From: Nitrosopumilus sp.
GTDB taxonomy: Archaea; Thermoproteota; Nitrososphaeria; Nitrososphaerales; Nitrosopumilaceae
DNA: 64,000 nt
Direction: 5' to 3'
Assembly (NCBI GenBank): GCA_965206745.1
Contig: OZ242220.1
Location: 1,120,001-1,184,000 of the forward strand
Of the stretch, positions 1-52,715 are shown one piece after another. The notes under the pieces were generated by a model. It ran no database searches. It had not been told where the DNA came from and saw nothing but the letters and a program-made list of their open reading frames with translations. Positions within the stretch are counted from its first letter, which is position 1, and each line of letters opens with the position of its first letter. Made by a program: the position numbers and the translations under genes.

Positions 1-900
1 TACAGGCCCCTCACAGAGAGACAGCACAAAACGCCTTTGCTAATTTCATATGCACTAATCAACAGATACCACATTTTGGATATTCAGCCAGAGAAGAGCT
101 GGGTCAGGAATTTGCTTCAGCAAGGATTTGACGTATACATGCTAGATTGGGGAACGCCAACAAGCATGGACAAGTATCTTGACTTTGATGATTATGTGAA
201 CGGATATTTGGATTCGGCAGTGGAGCATATCAAAAACGAGTCCTCTAATGAGAGGATCACACTGCAAGGATACTGCACGGGAGGAACAATTGCCACAGCG
301 TATGCTGCTTTGCATCCAGAGAGCGTAAAAAACTACATTGCCACAGCTCCGGTAATTGACGGATGGCGAGATACCACAGTAATCAGCAATCTTGCAAAGC
401 ACATGGACGTGGAGAAGATGGTCGACATCATAGGCAACATGCCACCAGAATTCATGTACTATTGCTTTTCGGTTCTCAAGCCATTTGAGCAGGGAATTGA
501 AAAATATGTAAAGTTTTTCAAAAATATAGACAATAAGAAATTTGTTGATAATTTCCTCAGAGTTGAAAAATGGTTAGGAGACACACCGCCCATCCCAGGG
601 GAACTATTCAAACAGTGGATTAAAGACATCTATCAAGACAACCTGTTAATTCAGAACAAAATGTATGTGGGTGGAGAACACATAGATTTGAAAAAGATAG
701 ACATGCCAACATTTACCCAGATAGCTGTAGGAGATCATCTGGTTTCACCAGAGTGCAGCATGCCACTGCATTACGCAATAGGTAGTGAGGATAAAACATT
801 GAGAATGTATCCGACAGGGCACGTGGGCATGATAGCTAGTTCGCTCTCACAGAAGAAGGTATTGCCTGAGCTAGGAAAATGGCTTGCTCAAAGATCATAA
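1..900 (+). CDS. phaC: Class III poly(3-hydroxyalkanoate) synthase subunit PhaC, 5'-truncated by the window edge
   Basis: Frame is open from base 1 (YRPLTERQHKTPLLISYALINR); lipase box GYCTGG, catalytic Asp (GDHLV) and His (TGHVG), LDWG motif. Confidence 0.92.
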   Translation, partial: YRPLTERQHKTPLLISYALINRYHILDIQPEKSWVRNLLQQGFDVYMLDWGTPTSMDKYLDFDDYVNGYLDSAVEHIKNESSNERITLQGYCTGGTIATAYAALHPESVKNYIATAPVIDGWRDTTVISNLAKHMDVEKMVDIIGNMPPEFMYYCFSVLKPFEQGIEKYVKFFKNIDNKKFVDNFLRVEKWLGDTPPIPGELFKQWIKDIYQDNLLIQNKMYVGGEHIDLKKIDMPTFTQIAVGDHLVSPECSMPLHYAIGSEDKTLRMYPTGHVGMIASSLSQKKVLPELGKWLAQRS

Positions 901-9568: not shown

Positions 9569-10109
9569 TAATCAAACCGCTTCATATAGCAAATATGATC
9601 TTCATTGCAACGACAACCAAGTACATTGTTATCTCAAGGAAAGATGTCTCTTTTTCTAGCATCATGAAGCAAGCAATAATTATTCAAACAGACTTGTGTT
9701 TTTTAAAAATATCACAGTTAAACAAACCAGTGTTGATATCTTCAGTTAATTGTTGCACTCGCATAAAATATGTGGATTGGTAAATTTTTTTGAAATTGAA
9801 AACATTGATGTGGCAGTATTGTTTTAGAGAACTGGCATTTGCGTGCAATTTGTACTATTTGAAAAAATGCATGACAAAATAAAAAACCACAGCCAAATAT
9901 TAGAAATCCACAACACTGAAATTTTTCAAAAATACCATGTTTGTAAACTGTACTCATCATAATTGCTGCTCCGGTTGGGATTTTCAAAGAAATGGGCGTC
10001 TGTGTCCATCAGATAAAGGTCACACACAAAATACAGACAGACAAAAAATAAAAAAAGTTGCAACATGATGTACCAATGTTTTAATATAACACTATGACTG
10101 ATCAAGCCA

Positions 10110-11288
10110 ATGACACAAAAACGTATAATGACCTCAATTGGTATACTAGCACTATTTGCTATACTTCCAAATGTATATGCAGGTGCAGATGATGATGACG
10201 TGGCACCAGCCCCGCCATCAATAGGTGCAGACATACCACTGACATACTTTGGGCCAGCCCCATCTGATGTTCAAAAGGAATTAATCGGACCATATCAGTT
10301 ACTGAAATCTGGGCAAATGGATCTTGATGCAGGCACTATAACTTTGCCTTTGTATCAGGGATTCGTACAAATTGACCAATTCAACACTGAGACAGTTTGG
10401 TTTATCTTAACTGACACAACTGATGGTGCAAATGCAGCAGCACTTGGAATCAATCACTCTCCAAAGCTTGCATACTCAGAGACCGCAAATTCTGTTAGAA
10501 CAGGATTCATAAATGATAATGGAAACATTGCATTTAATGGCGGGTCAGTTGACTTTACGCCATCAAGATCTTTGACCCCTGGTCAAGCCTCACCATTTCC
10601 ACCAGCTGATTTTCAGCCAGGTAGTGTAGGCGATGCAGAGTATTCACCACTGGTAAAAATAACAAATGCCGGTGGACACATCTACAATGCACCAGTGGTA
10701 GCCACAGGTAGTGCTGACTCAGTAACTGCTTGTGACGGAGATCCTGATTACAAAAAAGTCCACGACAGGGTAGTCAGAATTTGTCCTGAAGAAGCAACTG
10801 TAACGATGGAGCTTGCAGCAGGCTTTAGCTTTGCACGACCGGTACTATACATCAGTACAGAATCGAATCATCCAATGGCTGCAACACTAGAAGGTGCAAC
10901 ATTTGCACCAGCACTTGATGGAATTGTTGTAGGTAGAGATGACTCTGCATTTTCAGCAGTTGAGAGAATCTTTGTAATTGCAAATGGCCCCATGGGAAAA
11001 GAAAATCCCCAAAGACAGGGTCTTAATAGTGCAATAGCAGATCACAGAACTCCTCTCAATGTACTGGGCGGCATACCAACAATAGCTACTGATTACTCCC
11101 CACTGTGGGATGTCAATTTGGGCTTTTGGACAGATGAGGCACTAGAGAAAAACTATGATTCCAGAGTATCTGAAGAGTTTCAGATATTGGGACTAGTTGA
11201 ACAAGGATGGATTACAGGACCAGATGGTGGTGACTTTGGCAGTACAGGTATAATTGTAAACTGCCCAATCGCCTTTAGGTTCCTATAA
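10110..11288 (+). CDS. Secreted acidic protein of unknown function
   Basis: Signal peptide ending VYA-G; 392-aa ORF rich in Gly/Asp/Pro; two YSPL motifs. Confidence 0.8.
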   Translation: MTQKRIMTSIGILALFAILPNVYAGADDDDVAPAPPSIGADIPLTYFGPAPSDVQKELIGPYQLLKSGQMDLDAGTITLPLYQGFVQIDQFNTETVWFILTDTTDGANAAALGINHSPKLAYSETANSVRTGFINDNGNIAFNGGSVDFTPSRSLTPGQASPFPPADFQPGSVGDAEYSPLVKITNAGGHIYNAPVVATGSADSVTACDGDPDYKKVHDRVVRICPEEATVTMELAAGFSFARPVLYISTESNHPMAATLEGATFAPALDGIVVGRDDSAFSAVERIFVIANGPMGKENPQRQGLNSAIADHRTPLNVLGGIPTIATDYSPLWDVNLGFWTDEALEKNYDSRVSEEFQILGLVEQGWITGPDGGDFGSTGIIVNCPIAFRFL

Positions 11289-11290
11289 CC

Positions 11291-11299
11291 TTTTTTTTT
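11291..11299 (+). terminator. Oligo-T archaeal terminator
   Basis: T9 run starting 3 nt after the stop codon at 11288. Confidence 0.55.
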
Positions 11300-11810
11300 A
11301 ATATTTTTCAAGCATTAAATGACATGACTCAGGCTTTGCCAGATGACTCTGGTTTTAAGCATCGATGATTGGTTGAACTCAGCAGTTTGGGCATGTCAGG
11401 ACAAACTAATAATCTGTAAAATAGACACCATTCACGGGGTAACGAGAACGGGTGGGAGATTGCATACGGTTGGATTTTCAAAACTTTTCTTGCTTCTAAT
11501 ATCACTTTGTTTCTTTTGTAACACAAGGCATGGTTTGAACAGATGAAAATATCAGATAATGATTCATAGTATTCAAATCTTGACTGAGCAAATAATGCAT
11601 CATAATTCATCAGTTTTGTATATTTTGTTTTCAATCATTTGGTCACTAGTAGACAAACACAGGAGTTTGAAGGACGTCAATTCTTACAAGTTCGTCAATA
11701 ACTTTCCTGCAGGATAGGTCATGAATCGACATGATATCAATGAATGTTGTTATCTCATTACATTAGACATAAAACGAAAAGATCATGATGATTTCATGGA
11801 AAGCTATGGA

Positions 11811-12461
11811 AAGCTCATGATGATTCATGTAAAGCTCATGATGATTCATGTAAAGCTCATGATGATTCATGTAAAGCTCATGATGATTCATGTAAAGCTC
11901 ATGATGATTCATGTAAAGCTCATGATGATTCATGTAAAGCTCATGATGATTCATGTAAAGCTCATGATGATTCATGTAAAGCTCATGATGATTCATGTAA
12001 AGCTCATGATGATTCATGTAAAGCTCATGATGATTCATGTAAAGCTCATGATGATTCATGTAAAGCTCATGATGATTCATGTAAAGCTCATGATGATTCA
12101 TGTAAAGCTCATGATGATTCATGTAAAGCTCATGATGATTCATGTAAAGCTCATGATGATTCATGTAAAGCTCATGATGATTCATGTAAAGCTCATGATG
12201 ATTCATGTAAAGCTCATGATGATTCATGTAAAGCTCATGATGATTCATGTAAAGCTCATGATGATTCATGTAAAGCTCATGATGATTCATGTAAAGCTCA
12301 TGATGATTCATGTAAAGCTCATGATGATTCATGTAAAGCTCATGATGATTCATGTAAAGCTCATGATGATTCATGTAAAGCTCATGATGATTCATGTAAA
12401 GCTCATGATGATTCATGTAAAGCTCATGATGATTCATGTAAAGCTCATGATGATTCATGTA
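11811..12461. repeat. Tandem repeat of 31 perfect copies of the 21-bp unit AAGCTCATGATGATTCATGTA, with degenerate copies on both flanks (about 11778-11810 and 12462-12487)
   Basis: Read directly; period 21, no spacers. Confidence 0.97.
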
Positions 12462-12574: not shown

Positions 12575-15567
<2,993 letters not shown>

Positions 15568-15684
15568 CGGTATATTCAGCCACATATTACACGACTATGC
15601 ACGACGATCATTGCAAACCACCGGTAAGTGGTCCACTACATCCTTCATACATCACTTTCGTGATGCATTGCATCGATGATTTCA

Positions 15685-17274
<1,590 letters not shown>

Positions 17275-34374: not shown

Positions 34375-36147
34375 ATGCTGAAATTTCAAGGCAAACTCGC
34401 ACTAATTACTGGCGGTGGTACAGGCATAGGCCAAGCAATCGCCAAGAGGTTCGTAGAAAACGGTGCCAGCGTAATCATCATGGGTAGACGAAGGGAGCCA
34501 TTAGATGAAACATCAAAGATGCTAGAGGGGATCATCTCTGAAAAAAATAGCGGGGCATCAGTCAGGATATTTTCAGGTGTGGATGTCGCAGATGAAGCTG
34601 CAATGAATGGAATGTTTGAATCACTAAGTAAAGACAGCATTACAATAGATTACCTAATTAACAACGCAGGAGTTTCAGGTCCCGTAACGTGTTTTGCAAA
34701 TGCGACAATGGATGAATTTAAAAGTACAATAGCAATTCACCTGACAGGTACGTTTTGGGGATCTGTTCAAGCATTAAAGGTAATGAAACAGGGCGCAAAA
34801 ATAATTACAATCTCAACATTTTTCACAGAGGAGCGACCATTAGAACAGAGGCCCTACAGGTTTAGAAGTCCATATACAGCATCACAGGGCGCCAAAAATA
34901 GATTGGCAGAGCTGATGTCTTGGGAATTGACAGAGAAGGGGATTATTTCAATTGCGACAAATCCAGGCCCCGTTCATTCAGATAGGATTTACAAGACGGT
35001 GTATCCAAAAGCCGCTGCAGAATTTATGAGGGTCAGTGGATTCGAAGATCTAGTTCCCACAGAGGTGGATGCAGCAAATAAAGAACTGTTGGCATTGCTA
35101 GGAGAGGACGAGGGAGTAATCAAAGAAGGAATTGCAAAAGCTGCTCAAAAACTGGCAAACGGTAAGGATGCCAGCAAGCTTGCAGAGACGTTTACAAACC
35201 TACTAAATAAGATTCAAACCATAGCTGAAAAAGTTCAAAACAACACATCGCATATGATTGCAAACCAAGAATTTCTATCACAGGAGCAGGTTTCAGAATC
35301 AGTTCTTAACTTGTGCGATGATCATATAGCAAAAATACTAAACGGCAAAGTGATTCCAGGGGACAGAGTGTTTTATCCTGTAAAACCTCACATCGGAACT
35401 ACAACGCCGGGAGTCCACCAACCTGACTTTGCAGGAAAAGCAGTTGTCTTTACAATTGATGCAACAGACAAAACAGATGCGCAGAGGGTTGAATTTTTGG
35501 CACAGCATGTTGAAAAGAACGGAGGCAAAGTAGCATGCTTTATCTCACAGACGACCCCGACAGAACTTCAAGAATACATCAGTGGCAAATTCCACTCACA
35601 TGTTGTAGATATTAAAAATGCCAAAGAGGTTGAGAGGTGGCTAAACACGGCCAGAACAAACATCGGAGAAGTTCTAGGAGTGGTTCACGTTACAGGAAGG
35701 TTGACTGAGGGCATAAAGTTAACAGAACTGTCACGTGCTCAATGGGAAGCACTAGTTGAGAAATTCATATCCACCCCTGCAAATGTGGCACAAAGGGCAC
35801 TAGAGCAGTTCGTACCGGGAGGAAACAGAGATCCTCGACTGTACAAAGATGCAAGGGGAGCAATCATGATTATCGGCCCCGACCTGCCAATTGGGAGAAA
35901 AGTGACCGGAACACAAAGGGCACAAATAGAAGTCTTTAGGGGGGCACTAAGGCCATTTACCACAACTGTAAACCAGGAGCTAAGCGATGTGCTAAAATCA
36001 CGGATCAGAATGTTTACAGTCCTCCCAGGTTCTGTAACAGGTTCAGAGCCAGATAACCAAAGAATTGCAGATGCATTTAACTTTCTAGTCTCGGAGAGCT
36101 CTGCCTCATCGTCAGAAGTGACCTTCTGTATAGACGAATCAAGATAA
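34375..36147 (+). CDS. Two-domain SDR family oxidoreductase
   Basis: TGGGTGIG, NNAG, YRFRSPYTASQGAK, PGPV; degenerate second SDR domain. Confidence 0.88.
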   Translation: MLKFQGKLALITGGGTGIGQAIAKRFVENGASVIIMGRRREPLDETSKMLEGIISEKNSGASVRIFSGVDVADEAAMNGMFESLSKDSITIDYLINNAGVSGPVTCFANATMDEFKSTIAIHLTGTFWGSVQALKVMKQGAKIITISTFFTEERPLEQRPYRFRSPYTASQGAKNRLAELMSWELTEKGIISIATNPGPVHSDRIYKTVYPKAAAEFMRVSGFEDLVPTEVDAANKELLALLGEDEGVIKEGIAKAAQKLANGKDASKLAETFTNLLNKIQTIAEKVQNNTSHMIANQEFLSQEQVSESVLNLCDDHIAKILNGKVIPGDRVFYPVKPHIGTTTPGVHQPDFAGKAVVFTIDATDKTDAQRVEFLAQHVEKNGGKVACFISQTTPTELQEYISGKFHSHVVDIKNAKEVERWLNTARTNIGEVLGVVHVTGRLTEGIKLTELSRAQWEALVEKFISTPANVAQRALEQFVPGGNRDPRLYKDARGAIMIIGPDLPIGRKVTGTQRAQIEVFRGALRPFTTTVNQELSDVLKSRIRMFTVLPGSVTGSEPDNQRIADAFNFLVSESSASSSEVTFCIDESR

Positions 36148-36149
36148 GA

Positions 36150-36602
36150 ATGATAAAGTTCTCAGAGTTTAGAGTGGGTGATGCATTTTATTCCACATGC
36201 AGTATTTCAGACAAAGAGCTAGAAGAATATCTAAAATTTTCCAGAGTCAAAAACGCATTCTTGAAAGATAAAAGAGACGGTGGGCGACAACTAGTATCCG
36301 GAAGAGCAATCCTGTCAAGGATGGAGGGGGAATTTACCAGACTGACTCAGGTTTATGGAAATGATATAATTTTTCTTGGGACAGACGGGGATTCTCAATG
36401 GAAAAATAGGAACACCAGATTTCTCAAACCATTCTATACGGATCAGGTATTGAAATTGAAATTTACAATTTCACAAAAAGAAGACATTGATGAAGAATTT
36501 GGGAAAATTTTTGTTGATTATGAGGGGACCTTGCAAGAGGGCAAAATCATAGTAATATCAAAGAAGAATATCTACAGGATTAAAAAAGAGCCACCCAGAT
36601 AG
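36150..36602 (+). CDS. MaoC-like hotdog-fold protein
   Basis: FRVGD, LVSGRAILS, RFLKPFY pattern; 2 nt after the SDR stop. Confidence 0.65.
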   Translation: MIKFSEFRVGDAFYSTCSISDKELEEYLKFSRVKNAFLKDKRDGGRQLVSGRAILSRMEGEFTRLTQVYGNDIIFLGTDGDSQWKNRNTRFLKPFYTDQVLKLKFTISQKEDIDEEFGKIFVDYEGTLQEGKIIVISKKNIYRIKKEPPR

Positions 36603-36852: not shown

Positions 36853-37623
36853 TTAAATTCTTGAAAAAAATAATTCAAGTGAATTTTCAAATTGCTTATT
36901 TAATTTTTGAAGATGGGCCGTATCTACCAAAAGAGCCTGTTCATCAAACCAAGGTTTTGACAAATACAAATTCCTATTCATCTCAACTTGAATCCAAGGA
37001 ATCGGGTTATTTCCATATGTTCTGATAATACGCCCTCCATGAAACGGGTCATTTAGGGAGATGTCTTTTCTGCCTATGCCATAAGATTCTGAGATAGAGT
37101 CAGCTAAAAGTTCCAACATCTCTTGTGATGATGTTTCCCCATCATTGTTTGACAAACAAAACAACGGTCTCTTGTTGTTATTTCCATCTGGTGAAATTTC
37201 TGGCGCAACTGATGCCATAGAATGACAATCCAAACACAATTGTAAATCTAGTTTTTTGAGAGATTGTTCAATAGATTTATGATACGGGTTATAATACAAC
37301 TCGATCAGTAGAGTTCTAAGAGCATCATCAGGTTCCTTATTTTCAACATAGATTGGTTTCCGATAACAAGTCAAACTCTTGATCAAGCCGTCGGGATTAT
37401 CAGGAGGCATGTCTTGTAATGAACGATTAAGATCAACAAATGCGCGGGCAATATTTGTCTTGATTACACGTTGAACTTTATCCCCTAAATCATACAGATC
37501 CACTGCAAAAGGATCTGAATCATCAAACAGATCTTTGTGTGTAATAGACAAATGGCCTGCAAGTTCTGCAGGCTTTTGCATCCCACCGTGCGGAATTGAT
37601 AGCAATACAGGAAGTGTATTCAA
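36853..37623 (-). CDS. N-formylglutamate amidohydrolase family protein
   Basis: SIPHGG, DSD, RAFVDLNR, YYNPYH, DCHSM, IQVEMNR. Confidence 0.9.
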   Translation of the reverse strand: MNTLPVLLSIPHGGMQKPAELAGHLSITHKDLFDDSDPFAVDLYDLGDKVQRVIKTNIARAFVDLNRSLQDMPPDNPDGLIKSLTCYRKPIYVENKEPDDALRTLLIELYYNPYHKSIEQSLKKLDLQLCLDCHSMASVAPEISPDGNNNKRPLFCLSNNDGETSSQEMLELLADSISESYGIGRKDISLNDPFHGGRIIRTYGNNPIPWIQVEMNRNLYLSKPWFDEQALLVDTAHLQKLNKQFENSLELFFSRI

Positions 37624-39252
37624 TTAAATGCCCTCTGCGATCCCATCACGCCTGACCTCTGCCACGCCATGAAATTCATTTTTCGATTGACATTTCATTA
37701 TTGCATGAATTGCACCATGATAAAACGAGTATCTGTCCTTTACAGAAATTTCATAGCCCATTTCCTTGAGATATTCAATTATTTCAGTACGAAATCCCCC
37801 ATCCTCAATGCTGACAGTGCCATTAATGGAGCAATGGAATCGGGGTTTCTCTATTGCAGTACTCATTGACAGATCCCCATCAATTAGCCTTGAAAGAAAC
37901 TGCGTGATGGTAGAGAAGATCCTCTGGCTGCCAGGACTGCCAAGCACCATCCAGAGCTTTGAATTGTTGAAGACCAAGGCAGGGGATACAGAAGTCCAAG
38001 GAATGGAGTTGGGTCTGACATAGAAAGGATGGTTCGGATTTGTGAATTCAAATGCAGACATGTAATTATTGTATAGAAACCCCAAGCCATCAGCTGCTGT
38101 CTTTGAACCATACACAAGTTCCACGGACTGGGTGATCCCTACTGCATTTCCTTGATCATCCATGGTGGAGAGATGGGTTGTGTCTTCGCCTCCAAAATCA
38201 GGATCTATCATCGGCAAAGTGGCATCCATCGAATTGTGTATTGATTCGGCCATCTGTTTTGCAAAGGATCTTTGGAGATGAACCTTCTCCTCAATTTGAT
38301 CATAGGTATGGCGGTTAAATGGCTGTTGCATTCTGTGCAGGAATGCCTTTCTGAAAGTTTCTGCAACAAAATGGTACGAGCCGGGTTTTGAGCTACGTAG
38401 AAACTTTGAAGGCAGATGGTTGAGCATCATCAATGTAAGTAGCAATGTATTTCCCGCAGCAGGAGGGGGCAGAGTGACGACTGAAACGTGACGGTATTTT
38501 CTGCTAATGGTCTTTCTTTGAATGGGTTCAGGAATATATGCCAAATCTTCTTCCTGAATCAACCCACCATTATTTTTCATGTCCTGGGCAATTTTTTTGG
38601 CAATTTCACCATGGTAAAAAATCTGATACCCGTATTTTGAGATCAATGTGAGTGTTTCAGACAGATCTTCTTGGATGAATCTATCCCCGACATCATATGG
38701 CACTAGGCCGTCTTTGAGAAAGTATTTTGCTCCAGATTTTGACTTGATCGAAAGGAAATTTTCCAGCTCCTTCTCTTGCAAATCATGTTGGAGTTGGGTG
38801 ATTTTGTATCCTTTTTTTGCAATGTGGATTGACGGCGCAACAATTTTTTGCCACTCTAAACTACCGTACCTTTCATGTAAAAATCCAATCAAGGCAAGAG
38901 TACTAGGAACAGTGGTTGCCTTGTATCCAAGACGACGATTTTTCTTGTTTGCATATACAGAAGAGTGAACCAGTGAGGGGGACCTGCTAGAACCGTCAAT
39001 TGCGTATGATTTTCCATCGACATGGATAATCCCCATAGATTGGCCTCCGATTCCAGATGCCTGAGGCTCACACACACCCAACGCAAGGGCAGTCGCACAG
39101 GCAGCATCAATGGCATTTCCGCCTTTTTTGAGCATGTCTACTCCAGCTTTAGTAGCATCAGAAAAGGCTGATGAGACCATTCCTTTTTTTGCAACAGAGC
39201 ATTTTTTGTCAGATGTCTGTTTGAACGAATTTTCTATCTGCTCGACGTTCAT
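37624..39252 (-). CDS. ggt: Gamma-glutamyltransferase (cytoplasmic, no signal peptide)
   Basis: GGNAIDAA, EPQASGIGG, autoprocessing site DTTHLSTMD, GSPGS. Confidence 0.92.
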   Translation of the reverse strand: MNVEQIENSFKQTSDKKCSVAKKGMVSSAFSDATKAGVDMLKKGGNAIDAACATALALGVCEPQASGIGGQSMGIIHVDGKSYAIDGSSRSPSLVHSSVYANKKNRRLGYKATTVPSTLALIGFLHERYGSLEWQKIVAPSIHIAKKGYKITQLQHDLQEKELENFLSIKSKSGAKYFLKDGLVPYDVGDRFIQEDLSETLTLISKYGYQIFYHGEIAKKIAQDMKNNGGLIQEEDLAYIPEPIQRKTISRKYRHVSVVTLPPPAAGNTLLLTLMMLNHLPSKFLRSSKPGSYHFVAETFRKAFLHRMQQPFNRHTYDQIEEKVHLQRSFAKQMAESIHNSMDATLPMIDPDFGGEDTTHLSTMDDQGNAVGITQSVELVYGSKTAADGLGFLYNNYMSAFEFTNPNHPFYVRPNSIPWTSVSPALVFNNSKLWMVLGSPGSQRIFSTITQFLSRLIDGDLSMSTAIEKPRFHCSINGTVSIEDGGFRTEIIEYLKEMGYEISVKDRYSFYHGAIHAIMKCQSKNEFHGVAEVRRDGIAEGI

Positions 39253-41426
39253 TTTTTTGCTTGTCCGTTTGATGCCAGTTTGTTTAACACCAGTGCCAAC
39301 AAGACACCTCTGTCAACCATGCTGTCTTTTAAAATATATTCATTGGGAGTTCTGTAATCGGTACCAATAGGACCCATTCCTCCAACCATCGAGATGTCTT
39401 GTAAGACGTTACATAGACTAGAAGTTGCAAACCTATGTGTGGATTTAACTTTTATGTCTGCATCCTCTGCAGTTTTCTGAATCAGATCATACAAGCTTGA
39501 GATTTTTTCAGAGTTTTCCACAGGATCTCTTGTAGCTTGTTTTGAAATATGAATATCCAATTTTGATTGATCTTTCTTTTTAGCAATCCTGTGTAATTCT
39601 GAATCAAACCTTTGCCCTTGTGCTAAATTTGAATATCGTGATTCTAAAGATAATTGCCCATACTGGGGGGATCTTCCAAAAGAGGTTCTTGCTCGAAATT
39701 CAGAGATGGTAATTCTAGCATCATCATGATCTTCGGAGACTTTCTTCCAGGAGACTATTTTCTTGCACATATCAGGGATCACATCTTTGATTGTTTCATC
39801 ATGACGCCTAACGTGGGTCAGATCAACATGATACCTAGTGATGCCAGAGCAAGATGTTACAATTCCGCCGTTTTCCAGTCCCCACTTTAGCTCAATAATG
39901 TTTTTTGAGATTTTTGCAGTATCATATACTAGCTGCTTGCTAAATCTTCCACCCAAGCTATCATCAGTGATTAGTAAGACTCCACATTTTAGGTTCTTGA
40001 GCTTTCTAGCAAAACGCAGGGATTTTAGTGCTGCAAGCATGGTCACCAAACCTCCTTTACTTTCAGCAATGCCTGAACCGTAGAGCTTGTTACTAATCTT
40101 GTAAAAAGGCGTGAAATCCTGATTGGCATACCAAGTATCAAGATGTCCCAAGAGCAAAACGTCGTTTTCCTCAGAGTCATGGTTAGTAAAATACAGCATA
40201 TTTCCAACATCAAATTCGTGGTATTCTTGAACGGTGAATCCGAGGGGTGAGAGTCTCTTGGTCATCATTGTGCCAAGTTTGTTGACATCCTCCAGATTAG
40301 TTACACTAGAGTTTACATTTACAAGATGTTCAAGCAGTGCTTCGTTTGTCGTTGCATGGCTTCTGATATGGCTTCGCACTATAGAGCGTAGTGGTTGCGA
40401 TTCAACATTCTCTGAAGATTCTTCATGTTTGTGGGATTCCCCAAAATAGCGCAAGGCTGCAACATCAAGCATTTTGTTGATTAGCGAATCATATGTGTAT
40501 CCGGCACTCTGGGCGGCGGCAAAAAAGGATCCAGTAAGACCCAAGCTGGCCATGGAATTTAGCTCCAGAACATAAAAATTCCCATCTGCATTCATTCGAA
40601 AATCAACGCGGGTGAAATCATTTAATCCCAATTTTTTAAATGCCGCAAGGGAGATCCTTTTGATTTCTGCGGTTTGTTCCTCTGTTAGCAGTGCGGGACA
40701 TATTTTATCTACAGGGGTCTGTTTTTTGTCACTGATGGTCTGAATGCGGTTTGGATCCCCATTAAGATCCATCTCCACGATTGGTAGAATCTCAATATTG
40801 TTGCCATTACCCAACAATCCAACTGCAAATTCTCTGCCAGCAATAAACTGTTCCACTAAAATCTCCTGAGAATATTTCTCCATCTGTTTTACAACTGCTT
40901 TGTGTAAATCATCCCAATTATCAACTACCTCCATTCCCATGGATGTGGATTCCATTTTTGGTTTCACGATTACAGGAAATACCAGATCATCAAAGGTATC
41001 ATCAGGTGATGAAAATACCCAGAAACCAGGAGTGGGAAGATTGTTTTTCTGTAACACGATCTTCGTCATCACCTTATCTTGGACAACTGCATGAGTTTCC
41101 GGACCAGAGCCAGTATATGGAATTCCCAGCATTTCAAGCATAGCAGGTACGTGTGTGTAGCGATTCTGCCCTTGGATTCCATAAGCCATGTTAAACACCA
41201 TGCCGGGCCTCTCCCCTGAAACAACTCTTGGCATGAAATTTTTCATGTCATCGATAAAATTCATCCCTCCTTCGATGATCTTTACAGAGTGACCCCCTTT
41301 TTCCAAGGATTTGGCAACTTTCTCTACAGTTTTGGTACTATAGTGCTCTTTAGTAACCATACCAAAGACATTGATCACGTCATTTTCATCAACTGATTTT
41401 TTGTTATAAACGATAGCTACTTTCAA
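39249..41426 (-). CDS. D-Ala-D-Ala-ligase-like ATP-grasp domain fused to an M20-family peptidase-like domain
   Basis: IPYTGS, DKVMTK, VKPKMESTSMG, EQFIAGREF, RVDFR, ELN; C-terminal GHLDT, GIAESKGG. Confidence 0.88.
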   Translation of the reverse strand: MKVAIVYNKKSVDENDVINVFGMVTKEHYSTKTVEKVAKSLEKGGHSVKIIEGGMNFIDDMKNFMPRVVSGERPGMVFNMAYGIQGQNRYTHVPAMLEMLGIPYTGSGPETHAVVQDKVMTKIVLQKNNLPTPGFWVFSSPDDTFDDLVFPVIVKPKMESTSMGMEVVDNWDDLHKAVVKQMEKYSQEILVEQFIAGREFAVGLLGNGNNIEILPIVEMDLNGDPNRIQTISDKKQTPVDKICPALLTEEQTAEIKRISLAAFKKLGLNDFTRVDFRMNADGNFYVLELNSMASLGLTGSFFAAAQSAGYTYDSLINKMLDVAALRYFGESHKHEESSENVESQPLRSIVRSHIRSHATTNEALLEHLVNVNSSVTNLEDVNKLGTMMTKRLSPLGFTVQEYHEFDVGNMLYFTNHDSEENDVLLLGHLDTWYANQDFTPFYKISNKLYGSGIAESKGGLVTMLAALKSLRFARKLKNLKCGVLLITDDSLGGRFSKQLVYDTAKISKNIIELKWGLENGGIVTSCSGITRYHVDLTHVRRHDETIKDVIPDMCKKIVSWKKVSEDHDDARITISEFRARTSFGRSPQYGQLSLESRYSNLAQGQRFDSELHRIAKKKDQSKLDIHISKQATRDPVENSEKISSLYDLIQKTAEDADIKVKSTHRFATSSLCNVLQDISMVGGMGPIGTDYRTPNEYILKDSMVDRGVLLALVLNKLASNGQAKK

Positions 41427-41879: not shown

Positions 41880-42641
41880 TTGCATGTTTCGTTGAACAGA
41901 AAGAATTTATCCATTCTTGTTATTTTGCTATCTGTCGGTATTGGTGTTAGTGTATTTCTGATGATTTTAACATCTTTTGAAGATACAGCTGAAATTTACA
42001 TTGAGGGAGATACGCTGTTTTATCATGGTGAAATTAATGAATCAAGCTATGAAAAACTAAAATCAATAACAGATGAGAATCCAAATGTCAGCACGCTTGA
42101 AATAGCATCTACCGGGGGGGATACAAAATCGGGCAAAGACATCGGAAAGATAGTGTTTGATAGAAAGCTAGACGTGGTTGTTGACGCAATTTGTTTTTCA
42201 TCATGTGCTAATTACATATTTCCCAGCGGAGTAGAGAAATTCATCAAGGAGAACAGTTTTGTTGGTTGGCATGGCTCAGAGTTCCAGTACGATGTTCTGT
42301 CTGAAATTTATGATGAATCCTCTGAAGTACTTTTAAAAAATGCGATAGCAGAGAGTTGTAACAATGATTGGTCATGTTCGATTAGTGATGAATATGTACA
42401 AAACGAGTACGAATTAATCATAAGCGGACTAGAAGATGAAGAGGGATTTTTCGATATGATTGGAATAGACAAAAATGTAACACTAAACGGGTTGTATACC
42501 CTTACGGATTCAGAATGCATTGGGTGGACTCATTCCATATCAGATATGGCCATGTATGGAATTGACAATGTGTCTTATTTGTCAGACATGCCATACCCCG
42601 ATGAGGCCATACTAGAGGAGTATGGCATTTGTCTGATTTGA
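41880..42641 (+). CDS. Membrane-anchored acidic protein with ClpP/crotonase-like motifs
   Basis: N-terminal TM segment; YHGEI, IASTGGD, CFSSCANYIF, VGWH. Confidence 0.7.
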   Translation: MHVSLNRKNLSILVILLSVGIGVSVFLMILTSFEDTAEIYIEGDTLFYHGEINESSYEKLKSITDENPNVSTLEIASTGGDTKSGKDIGKIVFDRKLDVVVDAICFSSCANYIFPSGVEKFIKENSFVGWHGSEFQYDVLSEIYDESSEVLLKNAIAESCNNDWSCSISDEYVQNEYELIISGLEDEEGFFDMIGIDKNVTLNGLYTLTDSECIGWTHSISDMAMYGIDNVSYLSDMPYPDEAILEEYGICLI

Positions 42642-51941: not shown

Positions 51942-52715
51942 TTGGCAAGAAAATTAATGTTTTTTAGTGAAAAGCAACAAATTTCTTTAATGAATGATAA
52001 AACTAATTGGAAAATTAATTTTGTACTATCAGAAGAAATTAACTGTAGGGATCTTCCTTCATGCAATGATGTAGAATTTGATGTCATTACAAATAAAGCA
52101 AATCCAAAATCCATTACGGGGTTTGACATCATACTGAATAATATAACAAAAGACCAAGTTAGGCAATTAGCCACAAGCAAAGCTCAAAGAGTGACAGATC
52201 TGTTTGCATATCTTTCGTGTATAGCATTAAAATGCAAAATAAATGGAATTAGTGAAAAAAAACCATCTGGAGGTTACACTGTATCAAAGATATTGACTAT
52301 AGAATATAAAATTAAAAATAATATAGATATTACTATATTTAACCAAAAATTAACTGATGTGCTAAAAGGCAAAGATTTGAAATTAAATCAACAAATGGAA
52401 TACTTCAACAAGGCTTTAAATTCTATAACATTTGGAGATCCTGATTCAGCCATTAGAAATTTGTTTTTGATGTATGATGTTAAAGAACTACCAAAAGACG
52501 TGGAAAAATACGAATCACTTAGACATGCATTAAGTCATGACACAGTTTATCCATGTAATATTGAAAATATATCGAATAATTTTGGCAAGGATTATTTCAA
52601 ATTTACTGAAAAAGGACATTTTGATCATAGTTCAGAAAATAATAAAAATCATCTAACTGTAGAAGCAAATAATTTTCTAAATCAAGCAAAAAAAGAAATA
52701 AAAAAAATACTGTAA
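51942..52715 (+). CDS. AT-rich hypothetical protein with C-terminal HEPN-like RxxxxH motif (start may be ATG 51990)
   Basis: Helical C-domain with LRHALSH; visibly AT-richer than neighbouring genes. Confidence 0.65.
   Translation: MARKLMFFSEKQQISLMNDKTNWKINFVLSEEINCRDLPSCNDVEFDVITNKANPKSITGFDIILNNITKDQVRQLATSKAQRVTDLFAYLSCIALKCKINGISEKKPSGGYTVSKILTIEYKIKNNIDITIFNQKLTDVLKGKDLKLNQQMEYFNKALNSITFGDPDSAIRNLFLMYDVKELPKDVEKYESLRHALSHDTVYPCNIENISNNFGKDYFKFTEKGHFDHSSENNKNHLTVEANNFLNQAKKEIKKIL

Follow-up and report, generated by a model that had tools for sequence, protein, structure and literature searches.

What is made, and then taken apart again, by an archaeal operon that joins an ATP-grasp ligase resembling D-alanine-D-alanine ligases (Ddl) to two hydrolases was the question raised by a locus of Nitrosopumilus sp. 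(assembly GCA_965206745.1, contig OZ242220.1, positions 1,120,001 to 1,184,000; this whole stretch of 64,000 nucleotides is referred to as the window). The three genes encode a ligase fused to a peptidase M20 domain, a protein of the gamma-glutamyltransferase (GGT) family and a protein of the N-formylglutamate amidohydrolase (FGase) family (Table 1). The answer favoured here, with a confidence a little short of even, is that a gamma-glutamyl di- or oligopeptide would be made with ATP in the cytoplasm and hydrolysed again, acting as a compatible solute or a glutamate store. The product is read as a gamma-glutamyl amide mainly because in other genomes a single enzyme of the class I glutamine amidotransferase (GAT) class takes the place of both GGT and FGase. 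The folds of the partners, i.e. GGT, FGase, class I GAT and a domain like carboxypeptidase G2 (CPG2), all belong to families acting on glutamyl amides.

By its modelled fold and its conserved residues, the N-terminal domain of the fusion protein is an intact Ddl-type ATP-grasp amide ligase. The best structural match of the AlphaFold model (residues 1-339, predicted local distance difference score 93) was DdlA (8evv; Z 32.8, root-mean-square deviation 2.6, 300 residues aligned). Ddls as a group scored Z 28-33, in comparison to Z 18-23 for RimK, LysX, L-amino acid ligases and glutathione synthetase; RimK itself reached Z 21.1 and its Pfam score stayed below threshold (18.9 vs 21). Sequence identity to the top Ddl structures was 23-28% and the look-alikes of the ligase in the ESM Atlas were Ddl-family clusters. 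Since the catalytic and ATP-site residues S162, K234, R273, E288 and N290 are invariant in 105 of 105 full-length family members, the ligase is predicted to be active. The family-specific pocket residues E27, Y82, Q85 and R89, as well as S294, are likewise present in all 105, and R89 may bind a second carboxylate of the donor. The motifs used for D-alanine are replaced (AYGIQG..RY for LHG..GEDG; ELNSMAS for E.NT.PG), all listed Ddl cut-offs were failed (164.1 vs 243 for NF002378 and 152.8 vs 245.65 for TIGR01205) and the Ddl N-terminal Pfam domain found no match in the ligase. A preliminary description, made from the letters of the window, had stated that the ATP-grasp motifs are kept and the Ddl substrate motifs are not, and the failed cut-offs and the different pocket agree with it; some databases label the ligase D-alanine-D-alanine ligase.

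Other statements of that description concerned the layout of the operon. The tight coupling of the three genes was borne out by the coordinates and spacings, as the ligase-M20 and GGT genes overlap by 4 nt and the gap between the GGT and FGase genes is 0 nt. The motifs it quoted were located at ligase residues 79 and 288 and at GGT residues 418 and 438. The lack of signal peptides also held in a crude hydropathy test, not SignalP (maximum 12-residue mean 0.51-1.17 within the first 45 residues), as did the absence of hut genes from the window, with no hut or cap family among the proteins scanned (52 and 6, overlapping sets). The spacers called decayed turned out to be gaps of 453 and 250 nt without a detectable gene remnant, the best match in a tblastn search with 1310 queries having E 6e-5. 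A GAT remnant upstream of the ligase was considered and rejected, as the GAT profile scored 0.8 bits and shuffled controls scored higher. Lateral acquisition had also been proposed. A recent gain was not supported, since GC content, GC at third codon positions (GC3) and codon use of the operon lie within approximately 1.5 standard deviations of the flanking genes (GC 0.37-0.43, GC3 0.30-0.42, codon index 0.69-0.77 vs 0.725 +/- 0.027 for 31 flanking genes); an old transfer of the operon is plausible, as its occurrence is patchy and phyla are intermingled in the gene tree.

The GGT-family protein passed the TIGR00066 cut-off (369.7 bits, cut-off 357.85), and its T358 aligned with T391 in alignments to the E. 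coli and H. pylori enzymes. Its donor pocket is altered, with R114 replaced by S, N411 by E, Q430 by Y, D433 by A and G484 by S (E. coli numbering), so that of the canonical set of R114, N/E411, Q/E430, D433, S462-S463 and G483-G484 a Glu of the E411 type, one Ser and one Gly are retained and R114, Q430 and D433 are gone. The changes of R114, D433 and G484 are shared by at least 119 of 120 close homologues; D433 is retained in 18 of the 23 non-thaumarchaeal GGTs from other loci. A published account of GGTs reports that loss of D433 abolishes transpeptidation and leaves hydrolysis, that the B. subtilis enzyme has Glu at the 411 position and that extremophile enzymes carry Ser in place of R114 (PMC8062742). 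The altered pocket suggests that the protein is probably hydrolytic rather than a transpeptidase. Its sequence makes hydrolysis of a gamma-glutamyl-like donor the likeliest reaction; the donor could instead be glutaryl, N-acylated or beta-aminoacyl.

The motifs typical of the family are intact in the FGase-family protein (H12, D35/D37, N66-R67, H134 and E214) and conserved in 18 family members; their roles were assumed by analogy with carboxypeptidase A. It scored far below the HutG cut-off of TIGR02017 (89.8 vs 278.75), and linkage to hutHUI/F was not found among the window proteins, the recurring neighbour clusters or 78 of the 139 neighbour representatives, a scan that was not exhaustive for the loci. 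The enzyme probably releases the C-terminal amino acid from an N-acyl-amino acid.

The M20 domain is predicted to be catalytically dead. For the model of a homologue (P0121) the top Foldseek match was CPG2 (1cg2; E 9e-29, TM 0.79 by target). Of the metal ligands of 1cg2, H428 is retained and three are substituted by S456, S490 and K514 according to the alignment; the fifth, the last His, corresponds to R692, which was assigned by motif outside the aligned stretch, the CPG2 numbering of this ligand being assumed. With four of the five ligands gone, the domain is regarded as a pseudo-peptidase. H428 is kept in 30 of 30 archaeal sequences but in only 13 of 75 GTDB sequences. Its retention at full length in most loci nevertheless points to a role in structure or regulation, probably as a dimerisation or ligand-sensing module.

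The preliminary description had made its reading dependent on linkage of the three genes in other genomes, and they are linked. Locus counts given here refer to the best 80 of at least 591 GTDB relatives found with a Methanosarcinales-like query, and Nitrosopumilaceae are absent from these 80. The GGT gene adjoins the ligase gene in 22 loci, the FGase gene is present too in 17, and the exact order of the window, ligase-GGT-FGase, is kept contiguously in 16 (ANME/Methanosarcinales, Bacteroidota, Ignavibacteria, Acidobacteria, spirochaetes and Planctomycetes; ANME stands for anaerobic methanotrophic archaea). The 22 GGT loci comprise five of Methanobacteriota (including ANME), three of Bacteroidota, two each of Acidobacteriota and Spirochaetota, further ones of Ignavibacteriota, Thermoplasmatota and Planctomycetota, and seven unclassified. 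Across 18 operons the identity matrices of the three proteins co-vary (Mantel rho 0.53, 0.39 and 0.30; 0, 1 and 5 of 2000 permutations as high).

The 16S and 23S rRNA genes mark the window as archaeal, and its nearest named relatives belong to Nitrosopumilus. Matches were 60-87% identical for the ligase (including N. sp. K4), 71-89% for the GGT (N. sediminis, N. koreensis AR1, K4, b3, SW, S4 and S6) and 68-84% for the FGase protein (SW, N. cobalaminigenes, AR1, S4 and S6). Among the 120 Nitrosopumilaceae-like matches listed per gene, nine contig sizes were common to ligase and GGT, including 4,014 and 6,695 nt, which leave little room except for adjacency of the two genes; GGT and FGase shared 17 contig sizes, and a contig of 29,562 nt occurred in all three lists. 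Linkage in other Nitrosopumilaceae is thus indicated indirectly. Plasmid searches returned the full-length ligase-M20 fusion in none of 773 records, and no close GAT either. Three of the loci (handles L001 and so on) have unusual arrangements. In L004 (5693-9194, minus strand, and 10001-12076, plus strand) the ligase-M20 gene reads as two open reading frames (ORFs) of 351 and 279 aa, possibly by frameshift or assembly error, and a KamA gene with other Ddl-like genes is divergent from it. In L018 (8313-17928) two divergent GGT paralogues flank the ligase, together with an MscS-cluster gene and a K-Cl cotransporter-like gene, and in L063 the MscS and GAT genes lie between two copies of the ligase-M20 gene.

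In 42 of the 80 loci the ligase has a 191-aa class I GAT beside it, mostly in marine Bacteroidales and also in Ignavibacteria, Bacillota, Fusobacteriota and others, and in none of the 80 do GAT and GGT occur together. The catalytic Cys is present in 43 of 43 GATs, the HPE motif in 42, and the residue at Cys+4, which is Gln in GMP synthase A, is Glu in all 43. Cys110 and Glu114 have catalytic roles in folate gamma-glutamyl hydrolase. That enzyme shows the same feature as the GATs, Glu114 standing beside Cys110 (PMC12710020). The GAT is as conserved as the ligase, with a mean column identity of 72% each. The GGT type looks the older of the two on the ligase tree, because a GGT accompanies the ligase of the window as well as a distant ligase of Bradyrhizobium. 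A complex prediction for GAT and ligase-M20 of Carboxylicivirga mesophila scored 0.00 in two runs and was not used as evidence.

The neighbouring genes provided a physiological clue. Of the 80 loci, 29, spread over at least four phyla, contain MscS genes, which account for 43 of the 1227 ORFs; CorA occurs in 12 loci, and 36 have an ion or osmotic gene of some kind. One KSB1 locus has an MscS-cluster gene between its ligase and GGT genes, and genes for MscS, CorA and CNNM lie all around the ANME-1 locus L005. The MscS-type channel YggB of C. glutamicum is described as the escape valve for solutes and glutamate (PMC6397837).

Put together, the proposed mechanism would run as follows. The ligase would activate a carboxylate as an acyl-phosphate and join it to an amine. 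Glutamate would be activated at its gamma-carboxylate, R89 and E27 binding the alpha-carboxylate and the amine of the same molecule. The acceptor would be an amino acid whose carboxylate is free, in the simplest case Glu or Gln, giving gamma-Glu-Glu, gamma-Glu-Gln or short gamma-linked oligomers. The GGT would then remove N-terminal gamma-glutamyl units and the FGase-family enzyme the C-terminal residue, two tasks that one GAT may perform elsewhere, and the dead M20 domain would dimerise the ligase or sense glutamate or the product. To judge from the neighbours, the peptide could be a compatible solute or a store of nitrogen and glutamate, released through MscS or hydrolysed on osmotic downshift. 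A bolder version, held with marked reserve, is that of an unrecognised solute or nitrogen store, a gamma- or beta-glutamyl di- or oligopeptide made by a new Ddl-clade ligase with a dead-peptidase sensor and three interchangeable hydrolase families; its occurrence in Nitrosopumilus, ANME and anaerobic bacteria of marine origin, with product or salt as the signal sensed, is proposed just as tentatively.

The make-and-recycle system for a gamma-glutamyl or N-acyl-glutamate metabolite suggested in the preliminary description thus remains the best reading and is strengthened by the exchange of GAT for GGT. Recycling by the M20 domain is not supported, its degenerate metal site having been overlooked in the description. 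Of the products listed there, the osmolyte gained support from the MscS linkage, and poly-gamma-glutamate in its capsular form was not supported, capA being absent from all 80 loci and no Mur-type CapB being seen among the neighbours scanned. A protein tag is possible, and no target gene is linked.

Several observations weigh against a gamma-glutamyl peptide. The window GGT lacks R114, Q430 and D433 and may therefore use a donor other than a free gamma-glutamyl group. The GAT is nearest to the GMP synthase subunit A glutaminases (E 4e-32), with weaker matches to plant gamma-glutamyl peptidase 1 (E 2e-7) and Peptidase C26 (1.5e-6). The GGT/GAT exchange amounts to only three changes on the ligase tree and therefore rests on few events; an independent-pairs test of GGT against GAT found three pairs on well-supported branches and was not significant. 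The 80 loci are the best of at least 591 for their query and include no Nitrosopumilaceae; 16 of them (three ending at contig edges) have neither hydrolase beside the ligase. As to the osmotic link, 20 of the 29 MscS loci are from Bacteroidota, many of them related, and no MscS or ion gene was found near the operon among the window proteins scanned. Polyamine synthesis or uptake genes occur in 16 of the 80 loci, in four phyla.

These polyamine genes would fit a ligase that gamma-glutamylates putrescine, spermidine or homospermidine, the group being removed again by GGT or GAT as in PuuA/PuuD. In a Desulfobulbaceae metagenome-assembled genome (L080) potA/potB follow the ligase at a distance of 8 nt, and in L007 the gene next after FGase encodes an S-adenosylmethionine decarboxylase; Bacteroidales and L079 have genes for arginine decarboxylase, agmatinase and a deoxyhypusine-synthase-like protein. 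However, 13 of the 16 loci are from Bacteroidota and may just share an ion/stress island, no polyamine genes were found among the window proteins, and FGase-family enzymes bind a C-terminal carboxylate that polyamines do not possess, so this explanation was judged unlikely. Also improbable is a role of the GAT, or of the GGT in its stead, as a glutaminase feeding ammonia to the ligase to give a primary amide osmolyte, e.g. beta-glutamine or an amidated dipeptide, that FGase would degrade. The compact GAT is indeed closest to GMP synthase subunit A, and enzymes of this class normally work for a synthase; it is usually encoded just upstream of the ligase, overlapping it in some loci, and is equally conserved. 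Against this, the glutamine-binding Gln at Cys+4 is Glu in all 43 GATs, several loci have MscS between GAT and ligase or the GAT on the opposite strand (L058, L078), and no GGT is known to donate ammonia to a ligase.

For a beta-amino acid substrate, probably beta-glutamate formed by a KamA-like aminomutase and ligated into a beta-glutamyl peptide, the chance appears slim. The altered hydrolase pockets would fit the shifted amine, and one KamA subfamily is found fused to a ligase of the family (P0157), at 26 nt upstream of the complete operon of ANME-1 (L005), and ahead of the ligase in Bradyrhizobium and Mesorhizobium. This subfamily has Arg where the canonical type has Asp (FQ[GC]R vs YQCD), which suggests an acidic substrate if the residue roles that we assume for this position are right, and KamA also accompanies Ddl-like relatives of greater distance (L004, L091). 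Yet a KamA-like gene is present in only 6 of the 80 loci, adjacent in one and absent from the window, the subfamily passes no aminomutase equivalog cut-off, and KamA is an oxygen-sensitive radical SAM enzyme while Nitrosopumilus is aerobic. That the ligase extends a cofactor (folate, F420) or the C-terminus of a protein with glutamates, which the hydrolases would trim in the manner of CofF/RimK and RimB, was given a very small chance. Both CPG2 and gamma-glutamyl hydrolase act on folate glutamates; the M20 domain resembles the former, the Cys+4 Glu of the latter is found in the GAT, and one family member is fused to an RloB-like membrane domain. The fold, though, is Ddl-like (Z 32.8) and not like RimK or LysX (Z 21-23), and neither a cofactor gene nor a target gene is a recurrent neighbour. 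Hardly to be expected at all is a genuine D-alanine-D-alanine ligase or a part of a capsular poly-gamma-glutamate pathway, despite the Ddls being the nearest solved structures, the name in some databases and a stand-alone relative that precedes a CapA-family gene in Sinorhizobium NGR234. The best Ddl score was 164 vs 243 bits, the N-terminal Pfam match is missing, the D-Ala motifs are altered, all three proteins lack export signals and no mur gene recurs among the neighbours; capA is in none of the 80 loci (in a phmmer search of 1310 proteins NGR234 CapA matched only itself), and the CapB and CapC families were not seen in the 78 of 139 neighbour representatives scanned.

The gamma-glutamyl peptide reading was also compared with known systems. 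The operon pairs a ligase with a hydrolase as RimK/RimB, RloABC, NAGGN (N-acetylglutaminylglutamine amide) and PuuA/PuuD do, yet it fails the defining tests of each, as well as those of Ddl, M20 peptidase, HutG and CapBCA. With the Ddl/Van family the ligase shares the fold and the ATP and acyl-phosphate residues; it differs in its invariant Y82, Q85 and R89, MASL in place of xPG, an extra N-terminal loop, the fused pseudo-M20 domain and the lack of a peptidoglycan context. PuuA/PuuD is the gamma-glutamyl-polyamine pathway, in which PuuA has the glutamine synthetase fold. A ligase with a class I GAT hydrolase and the polyamine genes near 16 of 80 loci recall this pathway; the ligase of the operon is an ATP-grasp enzyme and no oxidase or dehydrogenase genes recur. 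In the yeast glutathione hydrolase Dug2/Dug3, made of a WD40-M20 fusion (Dug2) and a class II enzyme (Dug3), an inactive M20 domain also accompanies an amidotransferase-type gamma-glutamyl hydrolase, the difference being that the dead M20 domain of the operon is fused to the ligase. The NAGGN pathway, encoded by asnO-ngg plus a peptidase, yields an ATP-grasp-built glutamine/glutamate dipeptide osmolyte. The operon would resemble it in combining an ATP-grasp-built dipeptide osmolyte with a co-encoded degrading enzyme and differs in having no acetyltransferase domain or AsnO-type amidotransferase, another ligase clade and other hydrolases. NAGGN is itself described as a solute (PMC7824335). HutG shares the FGase family and intact metal motifs, in contrast to the score far below TIGR02017 and the missing hut context. 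PgsBCA/CapBCA has a Mur-ligase-type CapB and a membrane CapC, neither family being seen among the scanned neighbours of the ATP-grasp ligase described here.

Another of the close parallels is RloABC of Pseudomonas, described as an ATP-grasp/polyglutamate-peptidase operon needed for hypo-osmotic tolerance (PMC12239564). Like RloABC and RimK/RimB, the operon would combine an ATP-grasp ligase with a glutamate-chain peptidase and would be linked to hypo-osmotic tolerance, and stand-alone ligases related to its own are fused to or encoded beside an RloB-like seven-transmembrane (7TM) protein, in Bradyrhizobium with the same GGT subfamily too. RloC and RimK are RimK-type enzymes linked to alpha-glutamate chains, with aspartic peptidases, secreted in Rlo (PMC12239564), whereas the operon pairs a Ddl-type ligase with cytoplasmic GGT, FGase or GAT, partners that imply a gamma-linkage. 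The 7TM inactive-transglutaminase partner was not found in the window or among the recurring neighbours of the 80 loci, only with the related stand-alone ligases, and no aspartic peptidase was found among those neighbours. No description of the operon was found in a literature search that did not extend to subscription papers, supplements or the 2009 amidoligase-neighbourhood survey of Iyer and colleagues, which may mention the family. An evolutionary survey of Nitrosopumilus lists ectoine, proline/betaine uptake and MscS as osmotic tools (PMC7554672), and a term search of that paper found no ATP-grasp or formylglutamate passage.

Some clusters met during the comparison are of interest in their own right. 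Stand-alone ligases on rhizobial plasmids (L002 4282-9047, L003, L088, L089, L001) lie near KamA-like, GGT, 7TM and PanD genes and elsewhere near EctB with a second ATP-grasp gene, or CapA, often between insertion sequence elements; they are candidate small-peptide clusters. The KamA subfamily mentioned above (L005 8874-9974; L002 4282-5520; P0157) also carries an IMSH..GK motif and is possibly, on sequence grounds, a further kind of 2,3-aminomutase, acting on glutamate or aspartate. A protein of about 508 aa with a C-terminal nitrilase domain is encoded in a Bacteroidales polyamine/MscS/ligase island in L067 (6894-8420) and six other loci. A Thioflavicoccus plasmid (L091 2557-8038) has EctB-like, SbnA, SbnB-like and distant Ddl-like ligase genes with a convergent KamA gene.

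Within the window, the look-alikes of the ORF divergent from the operon were bacterial clusters in the Atlas, and this ORF does not belong to the neighbours that recur in the 80 loci. The hydrolase at the window edge presumably resembles the class III polyhydroxyalkanoate synthase PhaC, as suggested by motif. A scan of the window for bacterial promoters and terminators, a type of model unsuited to archaea, gave chance-level results.

Table 1. Genes and domains of the operon, followed by other features of the window
Feature	Position	Strand	Product	Basis or remarks
Ligase-M20 fusion ORF	41426-39249	-	725 aa, TTG start	Pfam Dala_Dala_lig_C (E 1.4e-33) and Peptidase_M20 (E 9e-10)
Ddl-fold ATP-grasp ligase domain	40437-41426	-	residues 1 to ~330	PF07478, E 1.4e-33
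CPG2-like M20 domain	39249-40394	-		CPG2 1cg2 alignment, Foldseek
GGT ORF	39252-37624	-	542 aa	Pfam G_glu_transpept (E 3.7e-112)
Cytoplasmic GGT-family N-terminal nucleophile (Ntn) hydrolase, nucleophile T358	37624-39252	-		TIGR00066, alignments
FGase-family ORF	37623-36853	-	256 aa, TTG start	
N-formylglutamate-amidohydrolase-family zinc amidohydrolase	36853-37623	-		Pfam FGase (PF05013), E 1.5e-43
ORF divergent from the operon	41880-42641	+	253 aa	N-terminal hydrophobic segment; weak ClpP-like match (NF045542, E 0.006)
Two genes convergent with the operon	34375-36602	+	590 aa, then 150 aa	tandem short-chain dehydrogenase, then protein without Pfam match
rRNA genes	12577-17194	-	archaeal 16S and 23S rRNA	5S match not found in the window
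Compositional outlier, clearest in the window	51942-52715	+	257 aa	GC 0.27, GC3 0.19; without Pfam match
Alpha/beta hydrolase	37-900	+		Pfam Abhydrolase_1 and DUF3141; probably truncated at the window edge

Nitrosopumilus is among the most abundant marine microbes. If a glutamyl peptide solute is indeed made by this operon, it would be a new route of osmolyte formation or nitrogen storage in Nitrosopumilus, ANME and marine Bacteroidales, and dissolved organic nitrogen might come in part from this source. The ligase would be a new ATP-dependent ligase for gamma-glutamyl peptides, and a family of at least 591 GTDB loci, several members of which are now called D-Ala-D-Ala ligase, would have to be relabelled. 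Since there are cultured carriers, namely Carboxylicivirga and Propionigenium maris, as well as N. koreensis for GGT and FGase, the proposal is directly testable.

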